A stretch of DNA of 64,000 nucleotides from an uncultured Acidobacteriota bacterium (GTDB taxonomy: Bacteria; Acidobacteriota; Terriglobia; Terriglobales; Acidobacteriaceae). The stretch spans positions 350,885-414,884 of the forward strand of contig CAVQTI010000014.1 of NCBI GenBank assembly GCA_963716405.1, written 5' to 3'. Under the pieces are notes generated by a model. The model worked only from the letters and a program-made list of their open reading frames with translations. It ran no database searches and was not told where the DNA came from. Below, piece by piece: positions 11,092 to 59,390 of the stretch. The position numbers were made by a program, and so were the translations under genes. The number at the start of each line of letters is the position of its first letter. Positions within the stretch are counted from its first letter, which is position 1.

Positions 11092-12783
11092 TTAGTCTCT
11101 CACCCCATCCATAAACGCGCGCAACTTCCGCGAGCGCGAGGGATGGCGCAGCTTGCGCAGCGCCTTGGCTTCGATTTGGCGGATACGTTCGCGCGTCACC
11201 GCAAACGACTGGCCTACTTCTTCGAGCGTGTGCTCGCTGCCGTCTTCCAGTCCGAAGCGCATCTTGATGACTTTTTCTTCGCGTGGAGTCAGCGTACGCA
11301 GCACCTGCGAAGTCTGGTCTTTCAAGTTGACGTTGATCACGGCCTCGGCTGGCGAGACTACGGCGCGGTCTTCGATGAAGTCGCCCAGATGCGAATCTTC
11401 CTCTTCGCCAATTGGCGTTTCGAGGGAGATTGGTTCCTGCGCGATCTTCAGCACCTTGCGCACCTTGGCCACGGGAATATCCATGCGCTTGGCAATTTCT
11501 TCCGAGGTAGGCTCGCGTCCCAGTTCCTGCACCAGTTGCCGCGAAGTGCGGATCAACTTGTTGATCGTCTCGATCATGTGCACGGGGATGCGAATCGTAC
11601 GCGCCTGATCAGCAATGGCACGAGTGATCGCCTGCCGAATCCACCATGTGGCGTAAGTCGAGAACTTATAGCCGCGGCGGTATTCGAATTTGTCGACGGC
11701 TTTCATCAGGCCGATGTTGCCTTCCTGAATCAGATCCAAGAACTGCAAGCCGCGGTTGGTGTACTTTTTGGCAATCGAAACTACCAGTCGGAGATTGGCC
11801 TCAATCAGCTCTCGCTTGGCCTGCTCCGCATCCATGTCCCCCTGGATGATCTCGCGCTGCGTGCGCTTGAGCTCCTGGAACGAGACTCCAGCCTCGACTT
11901 CAAGCTTCTCCAGTTCGGTGCGGATGGCACGCGACTGGCGGCGGTATTCCTTGCGCTGGTCTTCACTCCGGGTCGCGTCGGCTTTTTTTTCCAGATTCGT
12001 CGACTGACGGTCAAGCGACCGCATCATGTCGACCGTCTTGTTGGCTCGGTCGATGAGGCGCTTGCGCTCGTTGTTGGTGAAGCCCAGTTTGCGGACACAC
12101 AGCGAGACATCAACGATGGCGCGGGCCAACGCGATGCGATAACGGCGATAGTCCTTGGGACGCTTCTTCTGCGAAACCGCGGCAAACTTCTCCAGAAGTT
12201 GATTCGACTTCTTGTAGGCTTTCGCCAAGTCGTCAATCTTTCCGGTAAATTCTTTCAGCCGGTTCTGCAGAATTTCGTCAGTGATTTCCTCCTCGTCGAA
12301 GGTGACCACTTCCTTGATGGAGCGGACGCCTTTCTTGAGGTCTTCGCCCATCGCTAGTAATTCGTTGATGACGATTGGCGAACGCGAAAGAGCCTTCAGA
12401 ACGCGCAGTTGTCCGCGCTCGATGCGCTTGGCAATTTCAACTTCGCCTTCACGCGTAAGAAGCGGGACCGTTCCCATCTCGCGCAAATACATGCGGACGG
12501 GATCATTAGTTTTTTCCAGGGCGCCTGGGGTGAGATCGAGTTCGACGTCCTCGCCAACTTCATCTTCGTCAAACTTTTTATCGAGCGCAGAGGAGGGAAG
12601 CTTGGGTCCCTCCAGCACATCGATTCCCTGCGTACCAATGGTGGTAAGCAGATCGTCCAGGTCTTCAGGAGAGTGCACATCGTGCGGGATTAACTCGTTT
12701 ACTTGGTCGTAAGTAAGGTATCCCTTTTCCTTGCCTGTATCGATCAGCTTTTTAATGTCGTCGTACTTGTCATCAAGAGCCAA
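11092..12783 (-). CDS. rpoD: RNA polymerase sigma factor RpoD (sigma-70)
   Basis: 563 aa. Region 2 reads [27 protein letters not shown], and region 4 reads [28 protein letters not shown]. Confidence 0.95.
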
Positions 12784-44817: not shown

Positions 44818-46155
44818 CTAATGGCCCGGCTGGGAGCTAAATGTCTCAGGAGGATCTAAAAAGCAGCGGCGCCAGAAGGCTTGATCGGAGAGCGCACCGG
44901 CTTTCCATTGCTGCAGGGTAGGCAAGGTTGCAGCCGCCATTCCTCCGTCTTCCGAATCGAAAATCAGCACCACTCCGGCGGCGCTGGTTGGGGCTTGAGT
45001 TAGTTCGGCGTATTCTTTGCCGAAAAGCGATTTGGCGAATTCGAGCTTGGCTCGCGAACCGGTGTCAGTTGTGCCCGCGCTGGCGTTTTGAACGGTTAGA
45101 ATTTTCACCGTCTTTCCGCGAAGCGGTTCCCAGGTGCCGGGGAAAGAGGCAATCTCTTCATTCTTCACCTGAAAATTTTCCGCGTTGGCTTGCGCCGGGG
45201 AATTTTCACCTTTCGCTTCGGACGCGAAGTTACTCGGCATTTCGACGCCCGAGCGCCGCATCCATCCGCGAGACAGGCCCGAAATCCGCACGTGCACCCA
45301 GTTCGCATTCATGTCCAGAATTTCGAATTCATCTTCCGCGGTTGCGAGAAATAAAACTTTGGCGCCTTCAATCGGATTTCCCAGCACCGGCGTGCCCGAC
45401 TTCTTGACGGCGACCAGGTTTTTGGGGTGCGCTTGATTGCGCAGAATTTCCTCCAATCCTTTCGCTTCTTTGGTCAGGTCCTCCATGTGTTTATCGGCGA
45501 CTGCCTTCTGCGTGGCCAAGGAGGCCGCGAGATCGGAGTTAACCGGATTACCCATCTTGAAAGGAGAATTTTCAGGCATTGGTTTGGAAGACGCGAGCGG
45601 GGCGCTTGAAATCGCGTCGCCAGGCTGGGGGGCGGAGATGGTTGGCGTGGACGCCGCCGGCTTGCTCTTAAGCTGCGGTGGTGGCGAATTAACGGAGGCA
45701 TTCGCAGCGGGCGGTGAGCCAGTGCTGCCGAGCGCATCCTCGAGGCGATCGAGAAAATCGGTTTCCAGGCGGCCGTTGGAAGGGAGTTCCAGGTAGCCGG
45801 ATTTCGATGAAGCGGGATCGGCATACCACGCAGTTATTTTCGTGCTAACCCGCACTGTCGCGCCGCCGGATGGAGTTGAAATCACCTGCACCGCGCACTG
45901 ATAATAGCCACGCTGGAAGCGATCTAAAGGTCGATCGCCGGGACGAGTGAAGCCATCCAGTGTAGGCAAACGTCCCGAGGCCGAAGACTGCAACTGCCTC
46001 AGAGTTTTTTCTACTGATGCCTTGGATTGCGAAAACGTGCGCTCGTAGGGAGCGCTTTGAGCGGCACTGATGACAGCCAATGGCATCGTCGTAGCCAGCC
46101 AGAAAATGAGAAACCAGAGCCAGTGCGAAGCTGCAATCAAATGGATTCGCCTCAT
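44818..46155 (-). CDS. hypothetical exported protein with SH3b-like domain
   Basis: ATG 46155 overlaps the upstream stop as ATGA. It has a signal/anchor (HWLWFLIFWLATTMPLAVISAAQS) and an SH3b-like stretch, VLFLATAEDEFEILDMNANWVHVRISGLSRGWM. Confidence 0.55.
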   Translation of the reverse strand: MRRIHLIAASHWLWFLIFWLATTMPLAVISAAQSAPYERTFSQSKASVEKTLRQLQSSASGRLPTLDGFTRPGDRPLDRFQRGYYQCAVQVISTPSGGATVRVSTKITAWYADPASSKSGYLELPSNGRLETDFLDRLEDALGSTGSPPAANASVNSPPPQLKSKPAASTPTISAPQPGDAISSAPLASSKPMPENSPFKMGNPVNSDLAASLATQKAVADKHMEDLTKEAKGLEEILRNQAHPKNLVAVKKSGTPVLGNPIEGAKVLFLATAEDEFEILDMNANWVHVRISGLSRGWMRRSGVEMPSNFASEAKGENSPAQANAENFQVKNEEIASFPGTWEPLRGKTVKILTVQNASAGTTDTGSRAKLEFAKSLFGKEYAELTQAPTSAAGVVLIFDSEDGGMAAATLPTLQQWKAGALSDQAFWRRCFLDPPETFSSQPGH

Positions 46156-47105
46156 GGCAGCGGCTCCAGTTGATCGTGACGAATCCATCCGTGCTGTCCA
46201 TCCTCAGTTTCGACGCCGAACCAGTAGGGAGTCGCAATTACAATCACGACTTCGGCACCGGTATCCAAAGATTTCAAATTCGAGGCCGTATGAAACGGAG
46301 CGGATTTAAGTTGCGCCCCGGGAGCCTTAATCACCCGTTCGGCTTGCCGGCGAAGCTCCTGGATATGCTGTTCCAAACCTTGCACGGAAGTTTGCGCCGT
46401 GGCCAGAGCCAGGGCCTCATCCTCTTCACTTTTGCGCTCGAGAGCCCGCTTGGCCAACTCTTCCTGGCGCTGTTTTTCGCCCTGCTTAGCCTGACTTTTC
46501 TGCAGTTCGAGCGCGTCAACCTGGTCCTGAATATCTTTGTACTCGGCGCTTTCAACGCTGCCATTGGATTCATGCACGGTACGCCTGAAATCTTCGGTGA
46601 ATACGGCATCGATGCGCAGGATGGTACGATTTGCATCACGGCTTTGCACCACATAGCGAACCGCGAGCGTGCCTTCGTCGCCGGTTTCCTTGAAATTCGC
46701 CGGAGCCAAAACCTTGGTGCGTACTTTGTAAAAAACCGTGCCCGGGTCTTTCCACTCAGGAAACAGTGACGATGAGGAGACCAAATTGGCGCGTTCGACG
46801 TATTTGTCTTTGTTGTATTCGAAAGTGCCTTTGATGATGCCGTCGTCTGCGACAGCCTGCACTGCCTGCAAGACCTCGCTCTCCGGAGCATCGATCTCCG
46901 TGGAGAACGTCTGACCAAACTGTTCTTTTTTGTGTTCGCGGCCATAGAGCGGAACGACTGCTATGGCAAGCCAGAAAACTGAAAGCAGAGCGACGGCTAA
47001 CCTGCGGCAGGATGGGGCCCGCTGCTTTCCGGCGAACGACGGTACACTGTCGCTGACGATGCCGAGAATCTCTACCCTTCTACCGATGTTCCACATGCAC
47101 TTCAA
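46152..47105 (-). CDS. hypothetical membrane-anchored protein with coiled coil and C-terminal SH3b-like domain
   Basis: 317 aa with an anchor (LAVALLSVFWLAIAVVPLYG), a charged coiled coil (QKSQAKQGEKQRQEELAKRALERKSEEDE) and a C-terminal stretch AEVVIVIATPYWFGVETEDGQHGWIRHDQLE. Confidence 0.55.
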   Translation of the reverse strand: MKCMWNIGRRVEILGIVSDSVPSFAGKQRAPSCRRLAVALLSVFWLAIAVVPLYGREHKKEQFGQTFSTEIDAPESEVLQAVQAVADDGIIKGTFEYNKDKYVERANLVSSSSLFPEWKDPGTVFYKVRTKVLAPANFKETGDEGTLAVRYVVQSRDANRTILRIDAVFTEDFRRTVHESNGSVESAEYKDIQDQVDALELQKSQAKQGEKQRQEELAKRALERKSEEDEALALATAQTSVQGLEQHIQELRRQAERVIKAPGAQLKSAPFHTASNLKSLDTGAEVVIVIATPYWFGVETEDGQHGWIRHDQLEPLP

Positions 47106-47426: not shown

Positions 47427-47454
47427 TTGACACTGCTCTAACGAACATGATAAT
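47427..47454 (+). promoter_or_regulatory. candidate sigma-70-type promoter for the cyc2-like/oxidase operon
   Basis: TTGACA (47427-47432), a 16-nt spacer, then GATAAT (47449-47454), inside an AT-rich stretch of about 620 bp. This would give a leader of about 265 nt before ATG 47725. Confidence 0.35.
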
Positions 47455-47724
47455 TACTCCCTCCACGCGCACTTTACAGGGAATGGATGGTTTAACTTGC
47501 AATTTGGCTTTAGGGGAAACCAGATGACTGCTCCTGAGGTGCGTGTCCTCGGCCCAAGTAGGGCGGACTTTCTGTTTTTTCCGTCATCTGGTCAAATGCG
47601 ACCGTTTTCAGCGAACTCTAACCGACAACAATAGATTCAGTAACCATGCTTCGTCCGTTCGTTGTGGCGTCTATGTGATTTGGCATTAATTTTTGCGGTT
47701 GAGATTTCGCATTCAGGAGGAGTG

Positions 47725-49125
47725 ATGATCTCGTCCCGGAGAAATTTTGCGGGTAGCTTGTTGCTGCTGGTGCTGGTGCTGGGCTGCTTCCAAAATGCTA
47801 ATGCGTTGCCCGCCTTCGCCCGCAAGTATGGTTTGCGTTGTTCGGCCTGCCACGAATCGTGGCCAATGCTGAATTACTTTGGACAAAAGTTCAAAGACAA
47901 CGGTTATCAGCTCATGAATGATCGGGATTCTCCGGTCTGGCAGAATCCTTCGTACTGGCCCGTCACCTTCCGTATGACGCCGTCCTGGCACCGCGTCAGC
48001 GGCGCCAGAGTCGCCGAAGATTCGGTACCAGGCGATGCAACCTCCGCCACAGTGGAAAGAAGGGTGACCTCGACCGGCTTCGACTTAAGCGGTCTCGACT
48101 TGCATACCGGTGGGACCCTGGAGAAGAATATTTCGTTTTTCCTGTTGCCTTCTTCAGACAATACCGGAGCTTTTCACTTTGAAACGGTCATGGCTCGCCT
48201 TGACAATCTCTGGGGCAGTTCCTGGTTCAATGTGAAGCTGGGTAAATTTGAGCTGGACAACCTGCTTTCCGAAAAGCGCATTCTGACCTTGACCGGGAAT
48301 GGCGGAGTTTATCAGACATATCACTTCATTCCCGTGGGTGATAACAATATTTTCGGCCAGATCGGCGACAATCAGCTGGGCCTCGAGTACATGGGACATT
48401 CGATGGACGACCGGACGCGAATTTCCGCCGCCCTTATTAGCTCGAGCGACGGTAACGTGGGCCTGGTCACCGGGGCTAACTCTTACACCGGGTTCTTTAC
48501 CGGGAGCCAGGCTTTTGACGCGGGCAAACTGGGTGTGGAGCGCATTGGTTTCTACGCCATGGTAGGACAAGCAGCCACGTTCTATCAGACCGCTGGCGGG
48601 CTGCCGATCCCCGGATCGGGAATCGGTAATAAAAGCTTCAGCCGTGTCGGCTTCGTCGGACAATTCTACTTCGGCCCGCATTTCGACATCCAAGTCGTAA
48701 CCCAACACGGCTCCGATAACGCGTTTTTTGGACAAGGTTTTGGCAACGCCACGGACCCCAGCAATGGATCGACGGCAAACGACCTGCCGAACGCTACACC
48801 GGGAACCGTTCTCCCACCGACAGCTCGTGCGCCTAGCTGGAACGGTGCCACTTTCGAAGCTCATTATGTGTACAGCCCGCAACTGATATTCATCGGGCGC
48901 TTTGAGTTGGAAAGAATGTCGCAGCAAGCCAACACGACGAATCCGTCCAACTTGGGGAATATTACGACTTACACCGTTGGCTACCGCTACAACCCGTTTA
49001 TGACCAGCCGAGCGGGCTTCGCCTGGCACAACGAATACAACTTTCTGCACCAGGACCTCACGTCGTTCTACGGCAACAACGTAAACTCGAGCGAATTGTT
49101 ACTCGGCTTCGACTTCGATTTCTAG
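47725..49125 (+). CDS. Cyc2-like fused monohaem cytochrome c / outer-membrane beta-barrel protein
   Basis: ATG 47725 follows AGGAGG. The signal peptide (LLLLVLVLGCFQNANA) is followed immediately by LPAFARKYGLRCSACHESWPMLNYFGQKFKDNGY, which holds the single CxxCH. About 430 aa of alternating beta-strand-like sequence follow, ending in the OMP-type terminus LLLGFDFDF. Confidence 0.7.
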   Translation: MISSRRNFAGSLLLLVLVLGCFQNANALPAFARKYGLRCSACHESWPMLNYFGQKFKDNGYQLMNDRDSPVWQNPSYWPVTFRMTPSWHRVSGARVAEDSVPGDATSATVERRVTSTGFDLSGLDLHTGGTLEKNISFFLLPSSDNTGAFHFETVMARLDNLWGSSWFNVKLGKFELDNLLSEKRILTLTGNGGVYQTYHFIPVGDNNIFGQIGDNQLGLEYMGHSMDDRTRISAALISSSDGNVGLVTGANSYTGFFTGSQAFDAGKLGVERIGFYAMVGQAATFYQTAGGLPIPGSGIGNKSFSRVGFVGQFYFGPHFDIQVVTQHGSDNAFFGQGFGNATDPSNGSTANDLPNATPGTVLPPTARAPSWNGATFEAHYVYSPQLIFIGRFELERMSQQANTTNPSNLGNITTYTVGYRYNPFMTSRAGFAWHNEYNFLHQDLTSFYGNNVNSSELLLGFDFDF

Positions 49126-49137
49126 AGAGGAACAGCG

Positions 49138-50007
49138 ATGCGGACAAAATTACTTCTGCACAGTTCGTTATTGATAAGCGCGGTTGCTGTTCTCGTGCTT
49201 ACCTTGCCCGCGCGGGCCCAGCTTTCGACTAATCAGCTTGAGGCATGGCTAAACTCACCGGCGGCGACAAGCCACGTTGGCAATATCACTGGCAATGCCA
49301 AGGCCGCTGCCGCGCCCTATCGTAGATATTGCGTCGGTTGCCACGGCGACTTGGGCGATGGCAATGGCGAAAATGCGGTGTGGCTTGATCCAAAGCCACG
49401 CGATTTTCAGCTAGGCATATTCAAGTGCCGCTCCACACCCACCGGTACTCTGCCTACCGATGAGGACCTGTTCGACACTATTGGCCGTGGGTTGGATCGC
49501 TCGAATATGCCAATCTGGAATACTCTTACCAAGGACGAGCGTGCCGACCTGGTGGCATGGATCAAGCATTTTTCTCCCCGCTGGCAGAATGAGAAATCGG
49601 GAGCACCCATCCAGATTCCTACGGAGCCTGAAGTCACACCGGACCGCGTCAAGGCCGGCCAGGAAGTATTCGGCCGGGTCCAGTGTTGGAAGTGTCATGG
49701 AGTTCAGGGCATGGCTAACGGTCCTTCTGCGGCCACTCTTACCGATGATCTTGGCCGGCCGATTCTGCCCTACAATTTCACTGACGGATCTCGGCCGAAG
49801 TGCGGCAGTACCGATCGCGATATCTATAAGATCTTCATGACCGGGCTGGATGGTACGCCTATGCCGTCCTTTGCGGACAACCTCAAGCCAGACGAAGCCT
49901 GGGACTTGGTCTTCTACCTTCGTACTTTGCAACCCCACAACAAGTTTAATGCCAAGGAAAAACAGATCGCCAAGCAACTGGGATTGAAGCCAGTGAATCC
50001 ACAATAG
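49138..50007 (+). CDS. dihaem c-type cytochrome (periplasmic)
   Basis: 289 aa with a signal peptide and two CxxCH sites (CVGCHGDLGDGNG and CWKCHGVQGMANG), each followed by a candidate Met ligand region (SNMPIW, GTPMPSF). Confidence 0.8.
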   Translation: MRTKLLLHSSLLISAVAVLVLTLPARAQLSTNQLEAWLNSPAATSHVGNITGNAKAAAAPYRRYCVGCHGDLGDGNGENAVWLDPKPRDFQLGIFKCRSTPTGTLPTDEDLFDTIGRGLDRSNMPIWNTLTKDERADLVAWIKHFSPRWQNEKSGAPIQIPTEPEVTPDRVKAGQEVFGRVQCWKCHGVQGMANGPSAATLTDDLGRPILPYNFTDGSRPKCGSTDRDIYKIFMTGLDGTPMPSFADNLKPDEAWDLVFYLRTLQPHNKFNAKEKQIAKQLGLKPVNPQ

Positions 50008-50047
50008 TTTCGGACCAGTGGCGAAATCTATTTTTCAGGAGAAAGTG

Positions 50048-50794
50048 ATGAAGAACCAGAGGTATTCGAAGTACGTGGCAGTACTATTGGGTGTAGTACT
50101 GGTTGGTTTCGCGGCGGTCAGCCTTAACCAACACGTCAGCGCTGCCGCGGAAGGCTCGATTGCCGGCACGGTGAAACTCAACGGTCCCGCACCTCACATG
50201 AAGGGCATCGACATGTCGAAAGATCCCTATTGTGTGAAGCAGCATGAAAACAGTCCGGCGCACCTGGAGAATATTGAGGTGGGATCGGGCGGTGGAATAA
50301 AGAACGTCGTTCTGTACATCTCGGAAGGTCTCACCGGTAACGAGGCCAGCACGGCTTCAGGCACGCCGACTTTCGACCAGAAGGGTTGTATGTACATTCC
50401 GCACGTTCTGGCTATGGATGTTGGCCAGACCTTCAAGGTCATCACCAGCGATCAGACAACCCACAACATTCATCCGCTGCCCAATCCAATGACGGGGAAC
50501 ATTCCCTGGAACGAATCGCAGCCGCCGGGAGCGCCGCCTATCATGAAGAGCTGGAAGGCGCCCGAAATGATTCCCGTCAAATGCAACATTCATCCGTGGA
50601 TGCACGGATATCACGCGGTAGTAAAGGGGCCGTACGCTACTACTGATGATAGCGGGGCTTACACCATTCACGGGGTTCCTCCCGGCAGTTATACGGTCAC
50701 TGCCTGGCAGGAAGAGTTGGGCACTCAGACACAGAAAGTGACCGTGGCTGCGGGAAAACCCGGAAGCGCGGATTTCACCTTCAAGCCGAAATAG
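50048..50794 (+). CDS. cupredoxin (type-1 copper) domain protein with CarboxypepD_reg-like flanks
   Basis: ATG 50048 follows AGGAG. It has an N-terminal anchor. The type-1 Cu ligand pattern is THNIHP ... KCNIHPWMHGY (His ... Cys-x2-His-x2-Met, amicyanin-like spacing). The C-terminus, YTIHGVPPGSYTVTAWQEELG, looks like a beta-sandwich. Confidence 0.7.
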   Translation: MKNQRYSKYVAVLLGVVLVGFAAVSLNQHVSAAAEGSIAGTVKLNGPAPHMKGIDMSKDPYCVKQHENSPAHLENIEVGSGGGIKNVVLYISEGLTGNEASTASGTPTFDQKGCMYIPHVLAMDVGQTFKVITSDQTTHNIHPLPNPMTGNIPWNESQPPGAPPIMKSWKAPEMIPVKCNIHPWMHGYHAVVKGPYATTDDSGAYTIHGVPPGSYTVTAWQEELGTQTQKVTVAAGKPGSADFTFKPK

Positions 50795-50889
50795 ATAGTT
50801 GACGGGTGGCCGTCACAACATATAACGTGGCGGCCTCGCAGTCTCATTTCGTAAGCCAGATCGAAACATGCTTTGGGGGGCGAAGCGTC

Positions 50890-51693
50890 ATGGCGAAAAT
50901 CTTTGCCGTTACCGTTATCTTAATTGCAATTGCGTCCGCGATTCCCATCCTCCGGCATACTTGGGTGGCGCCCGAGGACATTTCGACTCATGGCGTGATG
51001 ATCGATGAGCAGATGTCAGAGACTATGGCAGAGGCGGGAATCGCGTTTCTGGCTGCGCAGTTCGTTCTCGCCATCTTTGTGTGGATGTTTTCCGGTCGAG
51101 GCAAAGACGCCAAGATCACCACTTTTCCCGGCGGCGCCACCGGATTGGTGGTAGCCGCTTTCCTCCTTGTGGGTACTGAGGTGCTGGCTCTCGGCATTTT
51201 CGGAGTAAAGGCTTGGGCCGACGTTTATCTCACGCCACCCTCAGCCTCAGCTATGCCCGTTCAAGTCCAGGCCGGACAGTTCGCCTTTTATTTTCGCTAC
51301 CCCGGCCCCGATGGAACATTCGGCCCGCTGCATCCCGAACTGATCAGCGAAGCCAACGAGAACTTCTTTGGGCTGGATACCACTCACGATGCGGATTCCA
51401 AAGACGACATTGTCACAGCCGAAATGGCGATCCCGGTGAACAAGGAAGTCCATCTGCTCATGCACTCGAAAGATCTCGGACATTCGTTTTTCGTGCGGGA
51501 GTTGCGAGTGCAACAGGATTTTGTTCCTGGGTTGGATGTGTCTCTTCATTTCACCGCGACCAAGGTTGGAAGATACGAAATCGTCTGCACGCAACTTTGT
51601 GGTTTGGGACATTACAACATGAAGGCATACCTCTCTGTCCTGTCCCAGGCAGACTTTGATGATTGGTTAAAGAAGCAAGCGGCACTGCAGTAG
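50890..51693 (+). CDS. coxB: cytochrome c oxidase subunit II (CuA, no fused cytochrome c domain)
   Basis: Two N-terminal TM helices and the CuA site HSFFV ... CTQLCGLGHYNM. There is no CxxCH. The start is ATG 50890, or the ORF start at 50806. Confidence 0.88.
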   Translation: MAKIFAVTVILIAIASAIPILRHTWVAPEDISTHGVMIDEQMSETMAEAGIAFLAAQFVLAIFVWMFSGRGKDAKITTFPGGATGLVVAAFLLVGTEVLALGIFGVKAWADVYLTPPSASAMPVQVQAGQFAFYFRYPGPDGTFGPLHPELISEANENFFGLDTTHDADSKDDIVTAEMAIPVNKEVHLLMHSKDLGHSFFVRELRVQQDFVPGLDVSLHFTATKVGRYEIVCTQLCGLGHYNMKAYLSVLSQADFDDWLKKQAALQ

Positions 51694-51741
51694 GATGCAT
51701 CCACTTTACTAGTGGGCAGACATCTCGTTTGAGGTGAGGCC

Positions 51742-53526
51742 ATGCACGATACATCAGCACATGCGGCACAACATCACGCCCCGACAAGCTTTATTAGCAA
51801 GCACGTCTTCAGTCTGGACCACAAGGTCATCGGGAAACAATACTACGCTCTGGCTCTGGTGGCGGTTTTTACGGGCATGGTGCTGTCATGGATAATGCGC
51901 CTTCACCTGGGATGGACCAGCCTGGCAATTCCCGGTCTCCATTTTCTTTCTAAAGCCGGGGCTCCTGGCGACGTGATGACGCCGGAGTTTTACCTGCAAC
52001 TGATGACGATGCACGGCACGATCATGGTGTTTTTCGTGCTCACCACCGCACCTTTTGCGGCCTTCGGAAACTATTTTCTACCCATCCAGGTCGGCGCGGA
52101 AGACATGCCCTTCCCCCACTTCAATATGATGTCGTTTTGGGTCACCTTCGTCTCCTTCCTGGTTCTGATGGCATCGTTCTTCGTGGGTGACGGTCCAACC
52201 TTAGGTGGATGGACCCAGTACGCGCCGCTTAGCGCCGTGGGTTCGGTCGGAGGCCCGGGCGAAGGATTGGGCACGGTTTTGTGGGCAGCTTCGATTGGAA
52301 TTTTTTGTGTGGGGCAGTTACTGGGCTCTCTGAACTTCATCACGACCACGCTCGACATGCGGACCAAGGGCATGAGCATGATGCGGCTGCCGTTAAGCGC
52401 CTGGGCATGGTTTGTGACTTCCTGCATGGGCCTCACTGCTTTCGCCGTGCTGATGCCAGCTACAATCCTGCTGATTCTGGATCACGTAGCCGGAACCAGT
52501 TTCTTCGTTCCCTCCAACCTGGTGATCAACGATCAGATACAGCCGCATTCCGGCGGATCAACTCTGCTTTGGCAGCACCTGTTCTGGTTCTTTGGACATC
52601 CCGAGGTTTACATCGCCATCGTGCCAGGAATAGGCATCGTCTCCCATATTCTCATCACTAACCTGCGCCGGCCGCTGCTCAGCCATCGCGTGATGATCTA
52701 CTGTATGGGAGCTCTTGCCGTTCTCAGTTACATGGTTTACGGGCATCACATGTTTGTCAGCGGAATGAACCCATATTCCTCCCTGGCATTCTCGTTCCCG
52801 ACGCTGGTAATCACCATCCCGGCGACGATCATGGTTCTGATCCTGCTGGGCAGCATTTGGGGCTCCCGGTTGCGCATCAATACGGCGTCACTGTTCGCTC
52901 TTGGCTTCATCTCCATGTTCGTTAGCGGCGGAGTCAGCGGCTTTTTCTTGGCCCAACCTTCAGTCGACATCATGCTGCATGCGACCTACTTCGTAGTCGG
53001 CCACTTTCACATGGTAATGGCAGTGGCGGCAATTTTCGGGATCTTCGCCGGCACCTATTTCTGGTTCCCGAAGATGACCGGGCGCATGATGAATGAGACT
53101 TTGGGCAAAATACATTTCTGGCTCAGCTTCGTGGGCACGTATTGTATCTTTATGCCATTCCACTACTTGGGCATGGCTGGCAATGTGCGCCGTTATCAGG
53201 CCTTTGTCGATGATTTCATGCAGCCCCTCATTCCGGTTCACAAGTTCATTACGATTGCTGCGATCTTGACCGGCGCATCGCAGTTCATTTTTCTCTACAA
53301 TCTGATTCACAGCCGGTTCTGGGGCAAGCCCGCGCCGGATAATCCTTGGGAGGGTACTTCGCTGGAGTGGAGCACGCCCACGACTCCTCCGCCACACAAC
53401 AATTTTGGCGATCATCTGCCCGTGGTTTACCACGATCCCTATCAGTATGGCGTGAAGAGTTCGACGGGCGATTACCTTATGCAGACTTCGCCAGACCAGG
53501 TTGCAAACGCGAAGGATGAGAAGTAG
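51742..53526 (+). CDS. ctaD: cytochrome c oxidase subunit I
   Basis: 594 aa. Haem-copper oxidase landmarks: WFFGHPEVYI, HHMF, VVGHFHMVM. Confidence 0.95.
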   Translation: MHDTSAHAAQHHAPTSFISKHVFSLDHKVIGKQYYALALVAVFTGMVLSWIMRLHLGWTSLAIPGLHFLSKAGAPGDVMTPEFYLQLMTMHGTIMVFFVLTTAPFAAFGNYFLPIQVGAEDMPFPHFNMMSFWVTFVSFLVLMASFFVGDGPTLGGWTQYAPLSAVGSVGGPGEGLGTVLWAASIGIFCVGQLLGSLNFITTTLDMRTKGMSMMRLPLSAWAWFVTSCMGLTAFAVLMPATILLILDHVAGTSFFVPSNLVINDQIQPHSGGSTLLWQHLFWFFGHPEVYIAIVPGIGIVSHILITNLRRPLLSHRVMIYCMGALAVLSYMVYGHHMFVSGMNPYSSLAFSFPTLVITIPATIMVLILLGSIWGSRLRINTASLFALGFISMFVSGGVSGFFLAQPSVDIMLHATYFVVGHFHMVMAVAAIFGIFAGTYFWFPKMTGRMMNETLGKIHFWLSFVGTYCIFMPFHYLGMAGNVRRYQAFVDDFMQPLIPVHKFITIAAILTGASQFIFLYNLIHSRFWGKPAPDNPWEGTSLEWSTPTTPPPHNNFGDHLPVVYHDPYQYGVKSSTGDYLMQTSPDQVANAKDEK

Positions 53527-53567
53527 CAGATCTGTAGAAGTGAAGATCAGAAGGGAAGTTGTGCAGT

Positions 53568-54245
53568 ATGGCAAGTACGGTTCATGAACCGCCACAAATC
53601 GACAAGCGACGTTTGCCGGATCTGAAGCAATCCGGAAACGGCGGTTGGCGGAATCTTGTGCCCGCGAACGGCGATCTGCGGGCGATAAAAGATTACTCTC
53701 CGCCAGCGTCGTCAACGGGAATTTGGGTGGTGCTGTTTGCCATCACCATGATGTTCGCCGCTTTTACCAGCGCGTTAGTGGTTCGCAAAGGTTCGTCGCT
53801 GGACTGGCGGCATTTTGCCCTCCCCTCCATTCTTTATTTCAATACGTTTCTGTTGTTGATGAGCAGTGTGACCCTTGAGGTCGCGCGCCGGCGCGTAGCC
53901 GCTTTCATGGGCGGTCTGCGCAAGGAAAATGAAAACCCAGCGCGATGGCTGTACATCACATTATTTCTGGGACTGCTTTTTGTGGCTGGCCAATACATCG
54001 CATGGCGTCAACTCAGTGCTGAGGGAGTTTTTCTCGCCACCAATCCCAGCAGTTCGTTTTTCTATGTACTCACTGCAACCCATGCGCTGCATGTACTGGG
54101 CGGCTTAGGCGGAATTATTTTTGTCATCCGCAAGCTTAACCGGTCTGCGTTGCGGCGCAACACCTTAGTTGCAGCAGCGCGCTACTGGCATTACATGGAC
54201 GTGCTTTGGATATACCTGCTGTTGCTGTTGTGGATGAATTTTTAA
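53568..54245 (+). CDS. haem-copper oxidase subunit III family protein (first of two)
   Basis: About 225 aa and polytopic. It ends RYWHYMDVLWIYLLLLLW, the typical subunit III C-terminal W-H-F-V-D-x-V-W-like motif. Confidence 0.8.
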   Translation: MASTVHEPPQIDKRRLPDLKQSGNGGWRNLVPANGDLRAIKDYSPPASSTGIWVVLFAITMMFAAFTSALVVRKGSSLDWRHFALPSILYFNTFLLLMSSVTLEVARRRVAAFMGGLRKENENPARWLYITLFLGLLFVAGQYIAWRQLSAEGVFLATNPSSSFFYVLTATHALHVLGGLGGIIFVIRKLNRSALRRNTLVAAARYWHYMDVLWIYLLLLLWMNF

Positions 54246-54270
54246 TCGTCTCGAGAAAGCAGGAGGCGCC

Positions 54271-54891
54271 GTGAGCCAAGCTGATTTGACAATGGGAGCA
54301 CACTCCGCAGGTATGGTGGCGGAACCCCCGTTTTCCATGCCTACCAAAAAGTTGGCAATGTGGTTGTTCATCATTGCCGACACCATGACATTTGCCGCAT
54401 GCCTGGTGGCTTATGGATTCCTGCGCGTTGGCACGCCCACTTGGCCGAGGCCTTTTCACAGCATCACTAACGTCGCGATCATGACCTTCATCCTGCTGAG
54501 CAGCAGTTTGACCATGATGCTCGGAGTGCAATCGGCGAAGACCGGGGATAAAGCCGGAGCCTTTCGCTGGACTATGATCACGGCGGCGCTCGGCATCGTA
54601 TTCGCTCTGCTGCACATTCGGGAATGGCTGGCGCTGATCGACGAAGGCATGACGCTGTTTAAGAATCCGTGGGGAACCGGACTGTTCGGCGCGTCATTTT
54701 TCAGCATCACCGGCTTGCACCTCACCCACGTTACCTGTGGCGTAATCGCTCTCATCGCCGTCGGCTTGCGTTACAAAGGTGGCCGTTACAACGCCGACGA
54801 TCTTGAGATTATGGGCCTCTACTGGCACTTCGTGGATCTGGTTTGGATGTTTGTGGTGCCGCTGGTATATCTGTTGAACCTTTCCCACTAG
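54271..54891 (+). CDS. ctaE: cytochrome c oxidase subunit III (second of two)
   Basis: 206 aa. GTG 54271 follows AGGAGG. Motifs: FFSITGLHLTHVTCGV and YWHFVDLVWMFVVPLVYL. Confidence 0.85.
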   Translation: MSQADLTMGAHSAGMVAEPPFSMPTKKLAMWLFIIADTMTFAACLVAYGFLRVGTPTWPRPFHSITNVAIMTFILLSSSLTMMLGVQSAKTGDKAGAFRWTMITAALGIVFALLHIREWLALIDEGMTLFKNPWGTGLFGASFFSITGLHLTHVTCGVIALIAVGLRYKGGRYNADDLEIMGLYWHFVDLVWMFVVPLVYLLNLSH

Positions 54892-54912
54892 ACGGACGAG
54901 GGAGCTGAACAT

Positions 54913-55239
54913 ATGGCAGTCACGCAACAACATAAAGAAAACGCAACCGGTAAGTACCTGATAGTTTATGTCTGCTTATTGGCTCTGGCTGGAATTCAGT
55001 TCGTGATCGCCTATCAGAATATTGATCCCGGCCAAATGTTCGTCCGCATGATGATCGTCGCCTTCGTGGAGGCACTGCTTGCGGTTCTGATTTTTATGCA
55101 TTTATGGGCAGAGAGCCGTGCCTTCGTGATTTTTGTGGCGGTGTTTACAATTTTTGTGCTGCTCGCTATGCAATATGGATGGACCGACAGTTTTCGCATG
55201 GAGCATGGCGGCGCGCCTTATTCCAATTATTCGAAGTAA
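54913..55239 (+). CDS. prokaryotic cytochrome c oxidase subunit IV family protein
   Basis: 108 aa with three hydrophobic helices, in the standard position after subunit III. Confidence 0.7.
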   Translation: MAVTQQHKENATGKYLIVYVCLLALAGIQFVIAYQNIDPGQMFVRMMIVAFVEALLAVLIFMHLWAESRAFVIFVAVFTIFVLLAMQYGWTDSFRMEHGGAPYSNYSK

Positions 55240-55267
55240 CGGTTATTCGAAGTAGCAAAGAGGAAAA

Positions 55268-55543
55268 ATGAAGTTAGCTAAGCCGCTCCCGTTGCTTGCC
55301 ATTGCGCTGCTGGGACTGACGTTGCTGGCGTTTCCTGTCCCGGTGTTCGCCCAGGGTTGCGCGCTCTGCTATACTCAGGCCGCTTCCGCGGGCGCTCGCA
55401 TGATTCAGGCTTTGCGCAGTGGAATTTTGATTCTGATTATTCCTCCCACACTCATGTCCGTTGGTATGATTTTTATTGTTCGGCAGAAACGCAGTCAGTT
55501 TAAGCGGAGCGAAGCCGCAGACGATTCTGGTCAAGACTGGTAA
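55268..55543 (+). CDS. small exported/membrane protein with CxxC motif
   Basis: 91 aa. A signal peptide ending VFAQG is followed by CALCY, one TM helix (ILILIIPPTLMSVGMIFIV) and a charged tail. It has an SD-like AGAGGA and a 2-nt gap to ctaB. Confidence 0.55.
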   Translation: MKLAKPLPLLAIALLGLTLLAFPVPVFAQGCALCYTQAASAGARMIQALRSGILILIIPPTLMSVGMIFIVRQKRSQFKRSEAADDSGQDW

Positions 55544-55544
55544 A

Positions 55545-56438
55545 ATGGCCACCACTACTTTAATGGCAAACTCTCCGCAGACTCTTACCGCCAAGCTTCG
55601 GGATTACTACACTCTCACCAAGCCAGAAGTGAACCTGCTTATTCTGATGACCACGTCGGCGGGCTATTATCTCGCCTCCCGCGGGCCGTTCAAGATTGCA
55701 GGCTTGGTCAATACGTTGGTGGGCACGCTTCTGGTTGCCAGCGGAACTGCAACCCTGAATCAATGGATGGAACGGGTGTTCGACGGCCAGATGCGTCGCA
55801 CCGCGAACCGGCCTTTGCCTTCAGGACGTCTCAGCACGCACGAAGCGCTTCTGTTCGGCATTTTGTTGAGCGTGGCCGGCGGAGTTTATCTTGCGATTAC
55901 AGTAAATCTGTTATCGGCATTCTTGGCAGTCTCGACGTTGCTCTCGTATCTGCTGATCTATACGCCGTTGAAGCGGAAAACCCCGCTGTGCACGCTGCTG
56001 GGTGCATTCCCTGGTGCGATGCCGACTTTAATCGGATGGGCCGGCGCCTCCAATGGCATTAACATGCATGCGTGGTATCTTTTTTCGATTCTCTTCCTGT
56101 GGCAATTTCCACACTTCCTCGCCATCGCTTTGATGTACCGCGACGATTACGCGCGTGCCGGCTATCGTATGCTGCCCGACTTCGATCTTGACTCCCGTTT
56201 CACGCGCGCCGAGATCGTCGGCTTCACTCTCGTCCTAATCGTCACCACCATGCTGCCTCTCGTCGGACGCGGCGGTCCAGTCTATGTTGTTGGCATGCTG
56301 CTGGCGGGAATCTTCATGTTGTATCACGTTGCCAAGCTGGCGCAATCTACCTCGAAAGCCTTGGCTAGCCGCGTGGTTCACGCCTCGGTTATTTATCTTC
56401 CAATTGTCCTTCTGATAATGGTTACCCACAAAGGCTGA
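55545..56438 (+). CDS. ctaB: protohaem IX farnesyltransferase (haem O synthase)
   Basis: From ATG 55545. UbiA-family motifs: NQWMERVFDGQMRRTANRPLPSGR and YRDDYARAG. Confidence 0.9.
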   Translation: MATTTLMANSPQTLTAKLRDYYTLTKPEVNLLILMTTSAGYYLASRGPFKIAGLVNTLVGTLLVASGTATLNQWMERVFDGQMRRTANRPLPSGRLSTHEALLFGILLSVAGGVYLAITVNLLSAFLAVSTLLSYLLIYTPLKRKTPLCTLLGAFPGAMPTLIGWAGASNGINMHAWYLFSILFLWQFPHFLAIALMYRDDYARAGYRMLPDFDLDSRFTRAEIVGFTLVLIVTTMLPLVGRGGPVYVVGMLLAGIFMLYHVAKLAQSTSKALASRVVHASVIYLPIVLLIMVTHKG

Positions 56439-56457
56439 GAGATTTCAGTTCACTATT

Positions 56458-57090
56458 GTGCTTTTGCGCGCGGATACAATGGCGGGCATGCGCATTCCTT
56501 TGTGGCTGAAGATTGCTTGGAGTGTGTGGCTGCTGGTGTGGATTCCGTTTTACTGGCATCAGTACGGAGCGCAGAACTTTTTATACTTTTGCGATCTGGG
56601 AAACTTTTTTATTGCGGCGGCGCTATGGCTGGAAAGCCCGCTGCTGTTTTCATGGCAGGCGTGCGGCCTGCTGCTTTTTCAAACGCTCTACAGCATTGAT
56701 CTGTTCGGAGCAGTGTTAAGCGGTAAGCATATTATCGGCGGCACGGAATACATGTTTGATCCTCATGTGCCGCTGCCGGTGCGGTTGCTAAGCTTGTTTC
56801 ACATCGTAGTGCCGCCGCTGCTGCTTTGGGCGATCTGGCGGTTGGGCTACGATCCACGAGGCTGGAAGTATCAGACGCTGACCGCTTGGATTGTGGTTCC
56901 CATGAATTATTTCTGGCGTCCGCAATTCGATGTCAACTGGGCGCGAGGACTTTTTTTTCGTCAACAGCACCTGGTACCGGGAATTATGTATTTATTGTTT
57001 TATCTGATCGCCGTGCCGTTGCTGGTGTATTGGCCGACGCATCTGTTTTTGCAATGGTGGGCCCGGCGGCGGCCTTACTCTAACCGCTAG
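56458..57090 (+). CDS. hypothetical polytopic membrane protein
   Basis: 210 aa with about 5-6 hydrophobic helices and several Trp/His-rich loops. No family recognised. It is the last gene of the oxidase operon. Confidence 0.5.
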   Translation: MLLRADTMAGMRIPLWLKIAWSVWLLVWIPFYWHQYGAQNFLYFCDLGNFFIAAALWLESPLLFSWQACGLLLFQTLYSIDLFGAVLSGKHIIGGTEYMFDPHVPLPVRLLSLFHIVVPPLLLWAIWRLGYDPRGWKYQTLTAWIVVPMNYFWRPQFDVNWARGLFFRQQHLVPGIMYLLFYLIAVPLLVYWPTHLFLQWWARRRPYSNR

Positions 57091-57232
57091 GTCATCCCGA
57101 AAGCCGGCGCACTTCAGCCGGCTGAGGGATCTCGCGAGGGGTAGCGCAGTGCGTCATGGCAGGGAATTGCGTTCAGTTACTGCACGCGGGATTCCTCACC
57201 CCGCTGGAGGAAACGCGGGGTTTCGGGATGAC
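57091..57232. repeat. Family C-variant MITE-like element, both arms (GTCATCCCGAAA ... TTTCGGGATGAC)
   Basis: The 12-bp termini are exact reverse complements. Internal hairpins are GCCGGC-gcacttca-GCCGGC and CCCCGC-tggaggaaa-GCGGGG. It lies between convergent genes. Confidence 0.75.
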
Positions 57233-57272: not shown

Positions 57273-59390
57273 TTAACGCGCGGACGCTAGCGCCTGCTGC
57301 GTGGCCTCCAGCAGCGCCTCCGGGCCGACCGGACGTCCCGTGGCGCGTTCCATCCACAGGTCCGGCGTGATGCGGCCCATCCTCGCCATGCGCTCGAACT
57401 CCGGGCCGATGCTTCCCGCTTTTTTCATTTGCTCTTCGATCTGGAACGCGATCATGTGGCCGATTGGATAATCGGGAAGATAGAGGAACGAATCGATCAT
57501 GTGCGAATAAACTCCGAGCAGAACGACGTCGTTCTTGTGGAAGACCGGCGCGTAGTAACGGTTCCAAATGTCTTTCGCGATTTGCACTGTAGCTTGATCG
57601 AGTTGCTCAGGCGTAGCTTGCGGATGGTCGTACATCCAGTGCCAGACGCTCATGTCCACGAGCGCGACACCAGCGATTTCGTAAGTACCCCAGAAATCGT
57701 TTAGAGTTTTTTCGGCTAGGCTTTTGGCGTCGGGCGCGGGCAGACCGAGCAGTTCGAGGTCGTGTCCCTGAAATACAAAGGCGAGCGCTTCGGTGAAAGC
57801 CGTGTTGGGCACGCCTTGCAGCAACGTGAAATCGTTGTCGTTCAGCGAGAAGGTTTGCTCTACGTTATGCCCCATTTCGTGCACAGCGATGTTGAATCCT
57901 TTGTAGTTCATACCGGTTTTTTCCACGCGGGTGCGCAAGTGAGCTTTTTCCGCGCGCATGGACGAACCCATGGCGTGTCCCGAGCCGCGAGCCGGGTCAA
58001 CGATGATGTTGTTCGCGACATGCTGCGCGCGGTCGGGCGCGAACCCAAGCTTGATAAGCAAATTAGGAATGTCTTTCTGATATGCCTCAGCGGTCGGATA
58101 TTTTTTCGCGACTATCTCATCAAGCTGCGCCTCGGTGTATTGGCTTCCCGGACGAAATCCGTTGTACCAGATGTCGAATGGCTCGAGCGGACGGCCTAGC
58201 CGAGTTTGAATCAGTTGCGCGGTTTGCGCGACCAGCGGCGAACTCAGCACTTGCTCCAGCATCGACTTTTACGCGCACTTCGGGAATCTCGCGATCTTCC
58301 TGGAAGCGCCGGTCGATCAGCGTGGGCGCGGTCGGGGAATAAGGATCAGCTTTTCTCGACGCGATGTAAGTTTTGAGCAACTTGGCGTAACGCGTGTCGG
58401 GTTCGGGCGAGTTCGTAATCGGGCGATTGTCGGAGGCTGCGGCATCCGAATCTTTCGCCGCCGCGGGCTTCACTTCGTTGCTGTATGGATTCCAGTCCAC
58501 CATGGGATTGTTGATCACAATCTGCGGAATGGTTTGCGTAACAATCCGTTCCATCACCTGCTGAATCATCCGCTGTTTGGCAAGGCCGTTCTGCTTGTCG
58601 GAATAATCCGCCTTTATTTCGTCGCGCAGGTTCCAGTGGCTCAGCAGCCGCATCTTCGCCGGGAAAAGACGCTGTCCTTGCGGATCAAGCAGGTGATACA
58701 TCCAAATGTTGTATTGGGCGACGTACTGCGCGGATTCGGCTGCGGCCTGGGCAATGCCCAGGTTGACGTCAGCTGGAATGCGTTTGTCAAAGCGCTCTGC
58801 GAGGCGAACCTCGGCCCATTGGCGGCGGGTCCAGTTCGGTCCATTCTTCAGACGTTCGTCGAGCGTAGTTAGTGGAAAGTTCAGCAGAACGATAAAGGCG
58901 ATTTTGTTATTAAAGAAATCATCGAGCACATGGGCGGAAGGGTCGTAACCGGCGAACATTTCGTCGAAGGGAAGCACCGGGCCGAGATCGAGATCGGATT
59001 GCTGGTTGAACTCGCGACTAATCTCGTGCATGTGGCCATCGAGTTGTTCGAGCAAGCTTTGAAAGCGGTTGAACATGGTATCGAGAGTAGCTTGGTCGCC
59101 GGCAAAATTTGTGTGAATGAATTCCTCGAACGTGGCAGCATCGCCGTCATCCGTGCGCCAGAATTCGGCAACCTGATGCAAACCTTGTTCAATTCTGGCC
59201 CGCCTGTTGGCCGCCGTATTTGGCGGTTAATTCCTTTTGTAGCTTGGCGGTTGAGTCGTTCATCCACGACGGTGAGACAGTTGCGGCGGAGGTGGAAGCG
59301 TTCTGCATCAAAATCTCCTCTGAAAAAAGTGGAACCGTAAACGAAAAAAGTGCAACCGCTAACAACGTCAGACAGATAGCGTGCTTTCAT
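57273..59390 (-). pseudogene. secreted gluzincin metallopeptidase (HEMGH...E, M2/M3-like), reading frame broken three times
   Basis: The three listed ORFs (58881..59390, 58120..59181, 57273..58262) tile one protein of about 705 aa. The active site is VHEMGHNVEQ with a downstream TEA. A proper signal peptide (KHAICLTLLAVALFSFTVPLFS) appears only after a frame shift right behind the ATG. Confidence 0.65.

Follow-up and report, generated by a model that had tools for sequence, protein, structure and literature searches.

The gene cluster at positions 47725-57090 of a 64,000-nucleotide stretch of contig CAVQTI010000014.1 (assembly GCA_963716405.1, an uncultured member of the Acidobacteriaceae) raises the question whether a bacterium of a lineage regarded as heterotrophic can draw electrons from outside the cell and pass them on to oxygen. 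The whole stretch is referred to here as the window. An earlier note on the window had described eleven same-strand genes with small gaps at this place, in which a Cyc2-like porin-cytochrome, a dihaem cytochrome c and a type-1 copper protein precede an aa3-type oxidase, and had read them as a single operon resembling the rus operon of Acidithiobacillus ferrooxidans. By open reading frame (ORF) listing and translation, all eleven genes were confirmed on the plus strand, and the gaps between them came to about 1-95 nucleotides (nt) when refined start codons were used. The first gene has the published signature and the predicted fold of the Cyc2 family, and its linkage to the dihaem cytochrome and the oxidase is kept in close relatives and recurs in distant ones. 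Judged from this genomic context, it is probable that the cluster encodes an electron-uptake conduit from the outer membrane to the oxidase; for the full reading, in which Fe(II) is the physiological donor of that conduit, the chances appear about even. The genes of the cluster are as follows (aa, amino acids).

47725-49125, plus strand: gene 1, Cyc2-family fused monohaem cytochrome c and outer-membrane porin, 466 aa, assigned by motif, length and predicted fold
49138-50007, plus strand: gene 2, periplasmic dihaem cytochrome c, 289 aa, with CVGCH and CWKCH; Pfam Cytochrom_C twice, signal peptide
50048-50794, plus strand: gene 3, secreted protein with a cupredoxin-like (type-1 copper) domain within a CarboxypepD_reg fold, 248 aa; the ORF opens at GTG 50018
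50806-51693, plus strand (probable start ATG 50890): coxB, oxidase subunit II; Pfam COX2, TIGR02866 CoxB
51742-53526, plus strand: coxA, A1-type haem-copper oxidase subunit I; COX1, E = 1e-123, TIGR02891, 531 bits
53559-54245, plus strand: oxidase subunit III, copy a; Pfam COX3, kept in 72 of 80 related loci
54271-54891, plus strand: oxidase subunit III, copy b; Pfam COX3, kept in 72 of 80 related loci
54913-55239, plus strand: oxidase subunit IV; Pfam COX4_pro
55268-55543, plus strand: small protein of 91 aa with a signal peptide, CxxC and a C-terminal transmembrane helix; no family match
55545-56438, plus strand: ctaB, haem O synthase; Pfam UbiA, E = 2e-56; the ORF opens at TTG 55476
56458-57090, plus strand: polytopic membrane protein of 210 aa; no family match, present in 1 of 80 related loci

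A putative Cyc2-type cytochrome-porin

Members of the Cyc2 family were described by Keffer et al. (PMC8406198) as proteins of 365 aa or more that contain a signal peptide, a single CXXCH haem motif and a 16-strand porin. The same authors reported the motif AXPXFAR[Q/K][T/Y], which they called unique to Cyc2; five residues separate its FAR arginine from the first Cys, and a PXL element lies four residues after the haem motif (PMC8406198). Gene 1 contains the motif ALPAFARKYGLRCSACHESWPML, the protein reading ...NA/LPAFARKYGLRCSACHESWPML... in this region. Its sequence ALPAFARKY-GLR-CSACH corresponds to AXPXFAR[Q/K][T/Y] plus CXXCH with five residues from R to C, and PXL is found in CSACH-ESW-PML. 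The protein has a single haem motif and its C-terminus, DFDF, ends in Phe. The signal peptide MISSRRNFAGSLLLLVLVLGCFQNANA, followed by LPAF, was read from the sequence and appears as a low-confidence helix in the structural model. These positions are well kept in the family: P29, F31, A32, C39, C42, H43 and P47 are the same throughout 24 relatives down to 26% identity, and L49 is nearly invariant. The strict motif is present in 139 of the 158 full-length relatives, exactly one CXXCH in 155 and the final Phe in 140.

The AlphaFold2 model of gene 1, with a predicted local distance difference test score (pLDDT) of 80.9 and a predicted template modelling score (pTM) of 0.80, begins with a short N-terminal helical stretch, after which DSSP assigns 16-18 strands. 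When this model was compared with the PDB by Foldseek, OprP (2o4v), OprO (4rjw/4rjx), PorB (3a2s/4aui/3wi4) and Omp32 were returned, all with a probability of 1.00. OprO and OprP are also the published structural templates for Cyc2 (PMC8406198), and PorB (4AUI, 3WI4) is that for Leptospirillum Cyt572 (PMC10654088). By the published family criteria and the predicted fold, gene 1 is a Cyc2-family fused cytochrome-porin. The claim of the earlier note that the first gene is Cyc2-like is borne out by the motifs, by the barrel in the structure prediction that the note had proposed as a check, and by the OprP, OprO and PorB matches. Searches of Pfam and NCBIfam gave nothing for gene 1, even at E ≤ 10; neither collection holds a matching Cyc2 model, and this empty result is therefore no argument against membership.

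Homologues of gene 1 are numerous, with more than 5,000 in 90%-identity clusters and 2,083 in 50%-identity clusters, and the names found among these clusters include Ca. Acidoferrales, Terriglobales and Ca. Sulfotelmatobacter. Within the barrel, H225 (..MGHS..) is nearly invariant down to 26% identity, and the same holds for E153, R232, E437 and others (alignment A1). Since the cytochrome region contains no conserved Met or second His, H225 may be regarded as a candidate distal haem ligand or metal-binding residue.

Candidate periplasmic carriers

The second gene had been called a dihaem cytochrome c in the earlier note, and the two Pfam Cytochrom_C domains agree with this. Both are class I cytochrome c domains, and no c4 structure was found among the PDB matches at E ≤ 0.01. 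The closest solved relative is PDB 6h5l_B (E = 1.9e-55, residues 60-266), to which gene 2 is clearly homologous across both haem domains. Chain B of 6H5L is recorded as a 'conserved hypothetical cytochrome protein' and is the partner chain in a HAO-like structure of Ca. Kuenenia stuttgartiensis; in our reading, it is soluble and exchanges electrons with a larger redox enzyme. The partners differ, in that the chain from Kuenenia accompanies an octahaem HAO-like protein, whereas the genomic partners of gene 2 are an outer-membrane porin-cytochrome and an oxidase. A weak NCBIfam match of gene 2 to cytochrome 579 (44 bits, with the cut-off at 280) is a hint only.

Gene 3 is a less usual protein. 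Its only Pfam match is CarboxypepD_reg, at the C-terminus, and no copper-protein match was obtained in Pfam or NCBIfam. In public records, its homologues are listed as 'carboxypeptidase regulatory-like domain-containing protein' and occasionally as 'plastocyanin'. Numbered from GTG 50018, the residues H129, H149, C189, H192 and M195 are invariant, and H149, C189, H192 and M195 are candidate copper ligands. The sequence CNIHPWM (C-x2-H-x2-M) is kept in about 72 of 77 loci, and a one-residue variant with the same ligand spacing occurs in three more. A profile of the gene 3 family matched the blue copper domain 5fc9_A of the PDB weakly (E = 0.0015 over 77 residues), with the ligands aligned, and the AlphaFold model, made from a shallow alignment, is poor (pLDDT 51). 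The G-x-I-x-G-x-V start of the CarboxypepD_reg domain lies N-terminal to the copper region and the remainder of that domain C-terminal to it; because its two parts flank the copper region in this way, the cupredoxin appears to be nested inside CarboxypepD_reg. An identification of gene 3 as rusticyanin was rejected in view of the lack of a copper-family match, the single PDB cupredoxin match (5fc9_A) and the CarboxypepD_reg architecture. The type-1 copper protein of the earlier note thus stands as far as the conserved ligands and the 5fc9_A match go, but not as a rusticyanin.

The terminal oxidase and the genes downstream of it

CoxB carries the CuA pattern H-x34-CTQLCGLGHYNM (H-x34-C-x-Q-x-C-x3-H-x2-M) and has no cytochrome c domain in Pfam, in agreement with what had been noted before. 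CoxA contains MHG, GHPEVY (the A1 type), YGHHMF and GHFHMV; it is a divergent member, since its TIGR02891 score of 531 bits lies below the equivalog cut-off of 671. Judged by these motifs and the predicted subunits, the cluster encodes a complete aa3 oxidase of the A1 type, which has a CuA site and lacks a fused cytochrome c. Since the CuA ligands are present and CoxB lacks a cytochrome c domain, the oxidase would need an external electron donor. A quinol oxidase was considered and is ruled out by the CuA ligands. Genes for a bc1 complex or for alternative complex III (ACIII) were not found in the 64-kb window.

The small CxxC protein follows cox4 in 71 of the 80 related loci, with a median identity of 58%, and may serve in the assembly of the oxidase or its CuA site, through thiol or copper handling. 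Neither this 91-aa protein nor the 210-aa membrane protein at the end of the cluster had a match in Pfam or NCBIfam, even at E ≤ 10.

Conservation of the cluster in close relatives

In a scan with one genome per species, at least 572 genomes contained a relative of gene 1, and synteny was counted in the 80 closest. All of these 80 are metagenome-assembled genomes (MAGs), labelled Terriglobales, Ca. Sulfotelmatobacter, Acidobacteriaceae or Acidobacteriota, apart from three labels that probably reflect mis-binning. Their sources are mostly peat and organic soils, including SPRUCE, the Stordalen palsa and Microflora Danica. The genes for the Cyc2-like protein, the dihaem cytochrome c, the cupredoxin-like protein, CoxB, CoxA, the two Cox3 copies, Cox4 and the small CxxC protein lie in this order on one strand in all of the 80 genomes with enough flanking sequence, and a median of 12 nt separates genes 1 and 2 over 80 of 80 loci. 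The same order in all of these genomes puts the arrangement far beyond chance. Measured against the window, median identities are 71% for gene 1 (range 67-93%), 76% for CoxB, 83% for CoxA and 65-72% for the Cox3 copies.

The ctaB gene lies downstream of these genes in the close clade, and in many other loci it is found about 3 kb upstream on the opposite strand. Since the last gene of the cluster occurs in only 1 of the 80 loci and the position of ctaB shifts, the conserved unit comprises genes one to nine, to which ctaB is attached in some loci; the 210-aa membrane protein probably lies outside it.

Conservation of the linkage in distant relatives

Eight contexts of more distant gene 1 relatives, with 28-50% identity to gene 1, were compared. 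Their gene orders are given below.

L085: COX1-COX3-COX4-x-x-COX2, Cyc2-like, dihaem c, CarboxypepD_reg
L086: Cyc2-like, dihaem c, COX3-COX4-x-COX2-COX1-COX3, cytochrome c
P0191 contig: COX3-COX4-x-COX2-COX1-COX3, cytochrome c, Cyc2-like, dihaem c; CarboxypepD_reg and SCO1 divergent
L087 (Ca. Acidoferrales): the gene order of the window, with a single COX3
L081: CarboxypepD_reg, Cyc2-like, dihaem c; no oxidase within 10 kb
L084: Cyc2-like, then dihaem c fused to an OmpA domain (11318-12520)
L082 and L083: Cyc2-like gene alone

A dihaem cytochrome gene is found beside the Cyc2-like gene in six of the eight contexts, and an A-type oxidase adjoins it in four, in differing gene orders. The dihaem cytochromes concerned are 47-50% identical to gene 2, above the conservation of the Cyc2-like protein itself. 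The CarboxypepD_reg protein of L081 is 34% identical to gene 3 and has kept C-x2-H-x2-M. Named relatives of the L085 branch are MAGs of Thermoanaerobaculia, Anaeromyxobacter and Myxococcaceae. That the linkage outlasts the shuffling of gene order is good evidence of functional coupling. Furthermore, the dihaem cytochrome follows the porin-cytochrome where no oxidase lies nearby (L081, L084), and it would therefore be primarily the partner of Cyc2 and not of the oxidase. The linkage of porin-cytochrome, dihaem cytochrome and oxidase pointed out in the earlier note is thus kept across the 80 Terriglobales genomes and reshuffled in distant lineages, as seen in the synteny survey that the note had suggested.

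One cluster representative, P0469, is an apparent fusion of a Cyc2-like protein with a dihaem cytochrome c (624 aa) and could be an artefact of gene calling. If real, this fusion and that of L084 would lend support of the Rosetta-stone type to a physical pairing of Cyc2 and the dihaem cytochrome near the outer membrane.

Promoter, leader and genomic surroundings

Upstream of gene 1, the following features were identified.

47427-47454, plus strand: promoter-like site of the sigma-70 type, TTGACA-16 nt-GATAAT, 11 of 12 consensus positions
47455-47724, plus strand: 5' leader of about 270 nt, with AGGAGG at 47716-47721

The site at 47427-47454 is the best and the only strong promoter-like site in the scanned region (46.9-57.5 kb). 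Within the cluster, promoter-like and terminator-like matches are weak and rarer than in shuffled sequence. The single operon proposed in the earlier note is consistent with this sole strong promoter and with the lack of convincing internal terminators, but its downstream boundary is less firm, given the rarity of the last gene and the variable place of ctaB.

Directly after the -10 element lies the block GTCCACGCGCACTT, which is kept, together with the promoter, only in the nearest clade (L001-L005, L011 and L045). The leader is partly conserved, with a length of about 265-280 nt, and is confined to this clade; in L045 it measures 85 nt, with promoter and block kept. It contains a conserved Shine-Dalgarno-like element followed by an ATG ('CCAGATGAC', ATG at 47525), and the encoded peptide is not conserved. 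A search of Rfam with 47455-47724 gave no match. This region may act as an operator or in regulation as a leader.

Gene starts were refined in four cases. Gene 1 starts at ATG 47725, preceded by AGGAGG. For gene 3, the most likely start is ATG 50048, preceded by AGGAGA, rather than GTG 50018, in agreement with homologues of 248 aa. The coxB and ctaB genes probably start at ATG 50890 and ATG 55545, respectively.

The window as a whole is core-chromosomal and contains rpoD, dnaG, guaA, ftsY, plsY, gpsA and the signal recognition particle (SRP) RNA. Acquisition of the cluster by horizontal transfer was considered and finds no support: its G+C content is 0.53-0.55, compared with 0.55-0.58 nearby, core genes lie on the flanks, and there is no compositional break. 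Between the end of the cluster and a convergent gene (57273-58262), a GC-rich hairpin, AGCCGGC-N8-GCCGGCT, is located at 57102-57124; it has no T-run and may be a bidirectional terminator. On the other side of the cluster, two divergent genes without a Pfam match encode proteins of 317 aa (46152-47105, minus strand) and 456 aa (44818-46188, minus strand). Both lie directly upstream of the operon in about 70 of the 80 related loci and also in L087 of Ca. Acidoferrales, where the homologue of the 456-aa protein has an SH3_3 domain. Farther away, a gene for an AcrB/RND transporter is split into two overlapping ORFs on the minus strand, 1523-2578 and 2484-4673, which cover profile positions 2-701 and 698-1020. 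The split gene belongs to an RND-HlyD-OEP efflux operon (4674-7084) and represents a frameshift, a pseudogene or a sequencing error.

Proposed electron path and rival explanations

The genes present, the Cyc2 signature of gene 1, its predicted fold and the conserved linkage are what the analysis shows; from them we infer the direction of electron flow, the order of the carriers, the identity of the donor and the physiological role as follows. The Cyc2-family protein, with one c-type haem at or in a porin of 16-18 strands, would take single electrons from a small soluble donor. The likeliest donor would be Fe(II), either as the free ion or complexed by organic ligands; in the acid soils and peats where these bacteria live, with their fluctuating redox conditions, this form of iron is stable. 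The periplasmic dihaem cytochrome c would receive the electrons next, and the secreted cupredoxin-like protein would likewise accept or relay them. These carriers would reduce the CuA site of the A1-type aa3 oxidase, followed by haem a and the a3-CuB site, and the oxidase would reduce O2 and pump protons. Since a heterotroph needs only the downhill branch of such a chain, the benefit would lie in supplementary energy (lithoheterotrophy), in protection against Fe(II), or in both. In favour of Fe(II), the biochemically tested family members, namely A. ferrooxidans Cyc2, Cyt572 and the Cyc2 of PV-1, all oxidise it (PMC8406198). The habitat of the host lineage, judged by the sources of the MAGs, is acid soil with changing redox state that is rich in both iron and organic matter.

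Several observations weigh against this path. The operon is near-universal in a lineage regarded as heterotrophic, and it adjoins the core genes rpoD, dnaG and guaA, as would fit the main oxidase of the lineage with ordinary carriers. The Cyc2-like gene stands alone in two of the eight distant contexts. The cupredoxin call rests on the conservation of the ligands and a profile match at E = 0.0015, with a model of pLDDT 51. A candidate Fur-box at 47443-47461, which overlaps the -10 element, agreed at 13 of 19 positions and was rejected as non-significant, as the window holds 13 equally good matches. Beyond the well-studied clades, it is regarded as uncertain what Cyc2 homologues do, most of all for Cluster 3 (PMC8406198). 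In a published similarity network, Cyt572 derives from a dense cluster of homologues from Acidobacteria and Nitrospira (PMC10654088), and the place of the acidobacterial homologues beside Cyt572 points to the cluster whose function is the most uncertain. Mn(II) oxidisers also carry Cyc2 homologues, as do nitrifiers of the Nitrospirales, which do not oxidise iron (PMC9040806). Searches of the full-text literature yielded no experiment on a member of this clade.

The same conduit could serve a donor other than Fe(II): a metal ion such as Mn(II) or Cu(I), humic or quinone groups of dissolved organic matter in their reduced form, or some other small, soluble reductant that is plentiful in acid soil and peat. 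All the context evidence for a conduit fits such a donor equally well, and the host MAGs come mostly from peat and organic soils; in addition, a Cyc2 homologue is the candidate Mn(II) oxidase of Ca. Manganitrophus, beside the homologues in nitrifiers (PMC9040806), and Keffer et al. allow for additional functions of Cyc2 (PMC8406198). We nevertheless regard another donor as unlikely, given the Fe(II) oxidation by every family member tested and the absence from the sequence of any feature seen to indicate another substrate; a small pore with one haem would, moreover, suit a hydrated metal ion better than bulky humics. Rather unlikely, too, is ordinary respiration, in which the cluster would encode the main terminal oxidase and genes 2 and 3 would carry electrons from a bc1 complex or ACIII encoded elsewhere. 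The Cyc2-like protein would then have a side role without energy entry, in the removal of toxic Fe(II) or reactive oxygen species, in metal or haem acquisition for oxidase assembly, or in redox sensing. Such a role would suit an operon that is core-genomic and widely conserved (80 of 80 close genomes, and a gene 1 relative in at least 572 species-level genomes), that also encodes ctaB and a putative assembly protein, and that belongs to a lineage known as heterotrophic with some sulfate-reducing members; a CoxB without a fused cytochrome c needs soluble carriers in normal respiration as well. However, the dihaem cytochrome tracks the Cyc2-like gene and not the oxidase, and ordinary respiration leaves unexplained why the two are paired where no oxidase is near (L081, L084). 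The fusion of the dihaem cytochrome to OmpA in L084 suggests a position anchored in the envelope, and the apparent fusion P0469 likewise speaks against ordinary respiration. The carriers could also accept electrons from both complex III and Cyc2, so that ordinary respiration is compatible with a conduit from the outer membrane; the other-donor and ordinary-respiration explanations are both partly compatible with the proposed path.

The reverse direction, in which electrons would be exported under anoxic conditions to extracellular Fe(III) or humics and the oxidase would adjoin because carriers are shared, appears very improbable. Relatives do occur in MAGs of Anaeromyxobacter and Myxococcaceae and in lineages with anaerobic lifestyles, and peat Acidobacteriota have been suggested to use electron acceptors from organic matter. 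Against export stand the close genomic linkage to an O2 reductase, which recurs in several gene orders, the single haem of a protein that is no multihaem wire, and a cluster devoid of a quinol dehydrogenase of the CymA or ImcH type. Inward flow from the outer membrane to the oxidase is the preferred reading of the cluster.

Significance

Terriglobales are among the most abundant bacteria of acidic soils and peat, and iron redox cycling in these environments controls carbon stabilisation, phosphorus availability and greenhouse-gas fluxes. We tentatively propose, at rather less than an even chance, that the dominant uncultured Terriglobales of acid soils and peat (Ca. Sulfotelmatobacter and relatives, Ca. 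Acidoferrales), together with some Thermoanaerobaculia and Myxococcota, may be facultative Fe(II)-oxidising lithoheterotrophs that share this ancient conserved module. If so, 'heterotrophic' Acidobacteriota, and not the classical iron oxidisers, would account for a large and unrecognised share of the Fe(II) that is oxidised aerobically in acidic soils rich in organic matter.

If the cluster encodes a chain from Fe(II) to O2, iron oxidation in acid soil and peat would be biologically far broader than the few recognised oxidisers suggest, and the cyc2 genes counted in surveys would gain a defined respiratory context in Acidobacteriota. The periplasmic steps that follow Cyc2 are poorly known outside Acidithiobacillus, and the dihaem cytochrome c and the nested cupredoxin-like protein are concrete candidates for them. 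With 67-93% identity across 80 genomes, gene 1 would also be a practical marker for metatranscriptomics.

Comparison with known systems

Surveys with FeGenie or marker genes already list cyc2 in acidobacterial MAGs from mine tailings and clayey till, and a Ca. Koribacter MAG from a cave has been reported to carry 'cyc2 and sulfocyanin'. Searches of the full-text literature gave no paper that contains both 'Sulfotelmatobacter' and 'cyc2', and none with an account or a test of the operon, of the genes kept with it or of where it occurs. The presence of Cyc2 homologues in Acidobacteriota is therefore not new, while the description of the operon appears to be. According to the earlier note, no such pathway had been shown experimentally in the group; that holds for experiments and for a description of the operon, but not for the gene.

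The A-type oxidases known from Acidobacteriota are caa3 enzymes encoded in 'superoperons', in which bc1 goes with an A1 caa3 oxidase and ACIII with an A2 caa3 oxidase (Trojan et al. 2021, PMC8407424). The caa3 superoperons come from the same phylum and share with the present cluster the A1 type (GHPEVY) and the set of subunits. The cluster differs from them in that bc1 or ACIII genes do not adjoin it, that subunit II has no fused cytochrome c, and that genes for a porin-cytochrome, a dihaem cytochrome c and a cupredoxin-like protein lie upstream.

Among characterised Cyc2 proteins, those of Mariprofundus PV-1 and A. ferrooxidans and Cyt572 of Leptospirillum have in common with gene 1 the signal peptide, the motif, CXXCH, PXL, a length of about 430-490 aa and the porin barrel. 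Cyc2 porin domains are poorly conserved in general (PMC8406198), whereas the clade of gene 1 is unusually well conserved, with a median of 71% across 80 species. In Leptospirillum, which uses Cyt572 and the periplasmic Cyt579, the pathway genes are unclustered, in contrast to the clustering observed here and in distant relatives.

The closest counterpart in gene content is the rus operon of A. ferrooxidans, cyc2-cyc1-ORF1-coxB-coxA-coxC-coxD-rus, whose products form an electron chain from Fe(II) to O2. Several differences are evident. The cupredoxin gene comes last in the rus operon and encodes rusticyanin, whereas the putative copper protein here comes third and appears nested in CarboxypepD_reg. 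Cyc1 is a c4 cytochrome, and gene 2 may or may not encode one; the nearest solved relative of gene 2 is 6H5L_B from Kuenenia. Two COX3 genes, the small CxxC protein and ctaB are found here and not in the rus operon. The host of the latter is an autotroph and extreme acidophile, whereas the present host is a heterotroph-like acidobacterium of acid soil or peat in which no uphill (bc1) branch is evident. Both gene sets lie on a single strand and begin with an outer-membrane monohaem cytochrome-porin followed by a dihaem cytochrome c; both include a cupredoxin, here a candidate one, and an aa3 oxidase, with a CoxB that has CuA and no fused cytochrome, and both are consistent with a downhill chain from the outer to the inner membrane and on to O2. 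Of the parallel drawn in the earlier note, the four functional classes and the order of cyc2 and dihaem cytochrome c are retained, but neither orthology nor a rusticyanin is. Judged by its gene content, the acidobacterial cluster is functionally like the rus operon and not an orthologous copy of it.

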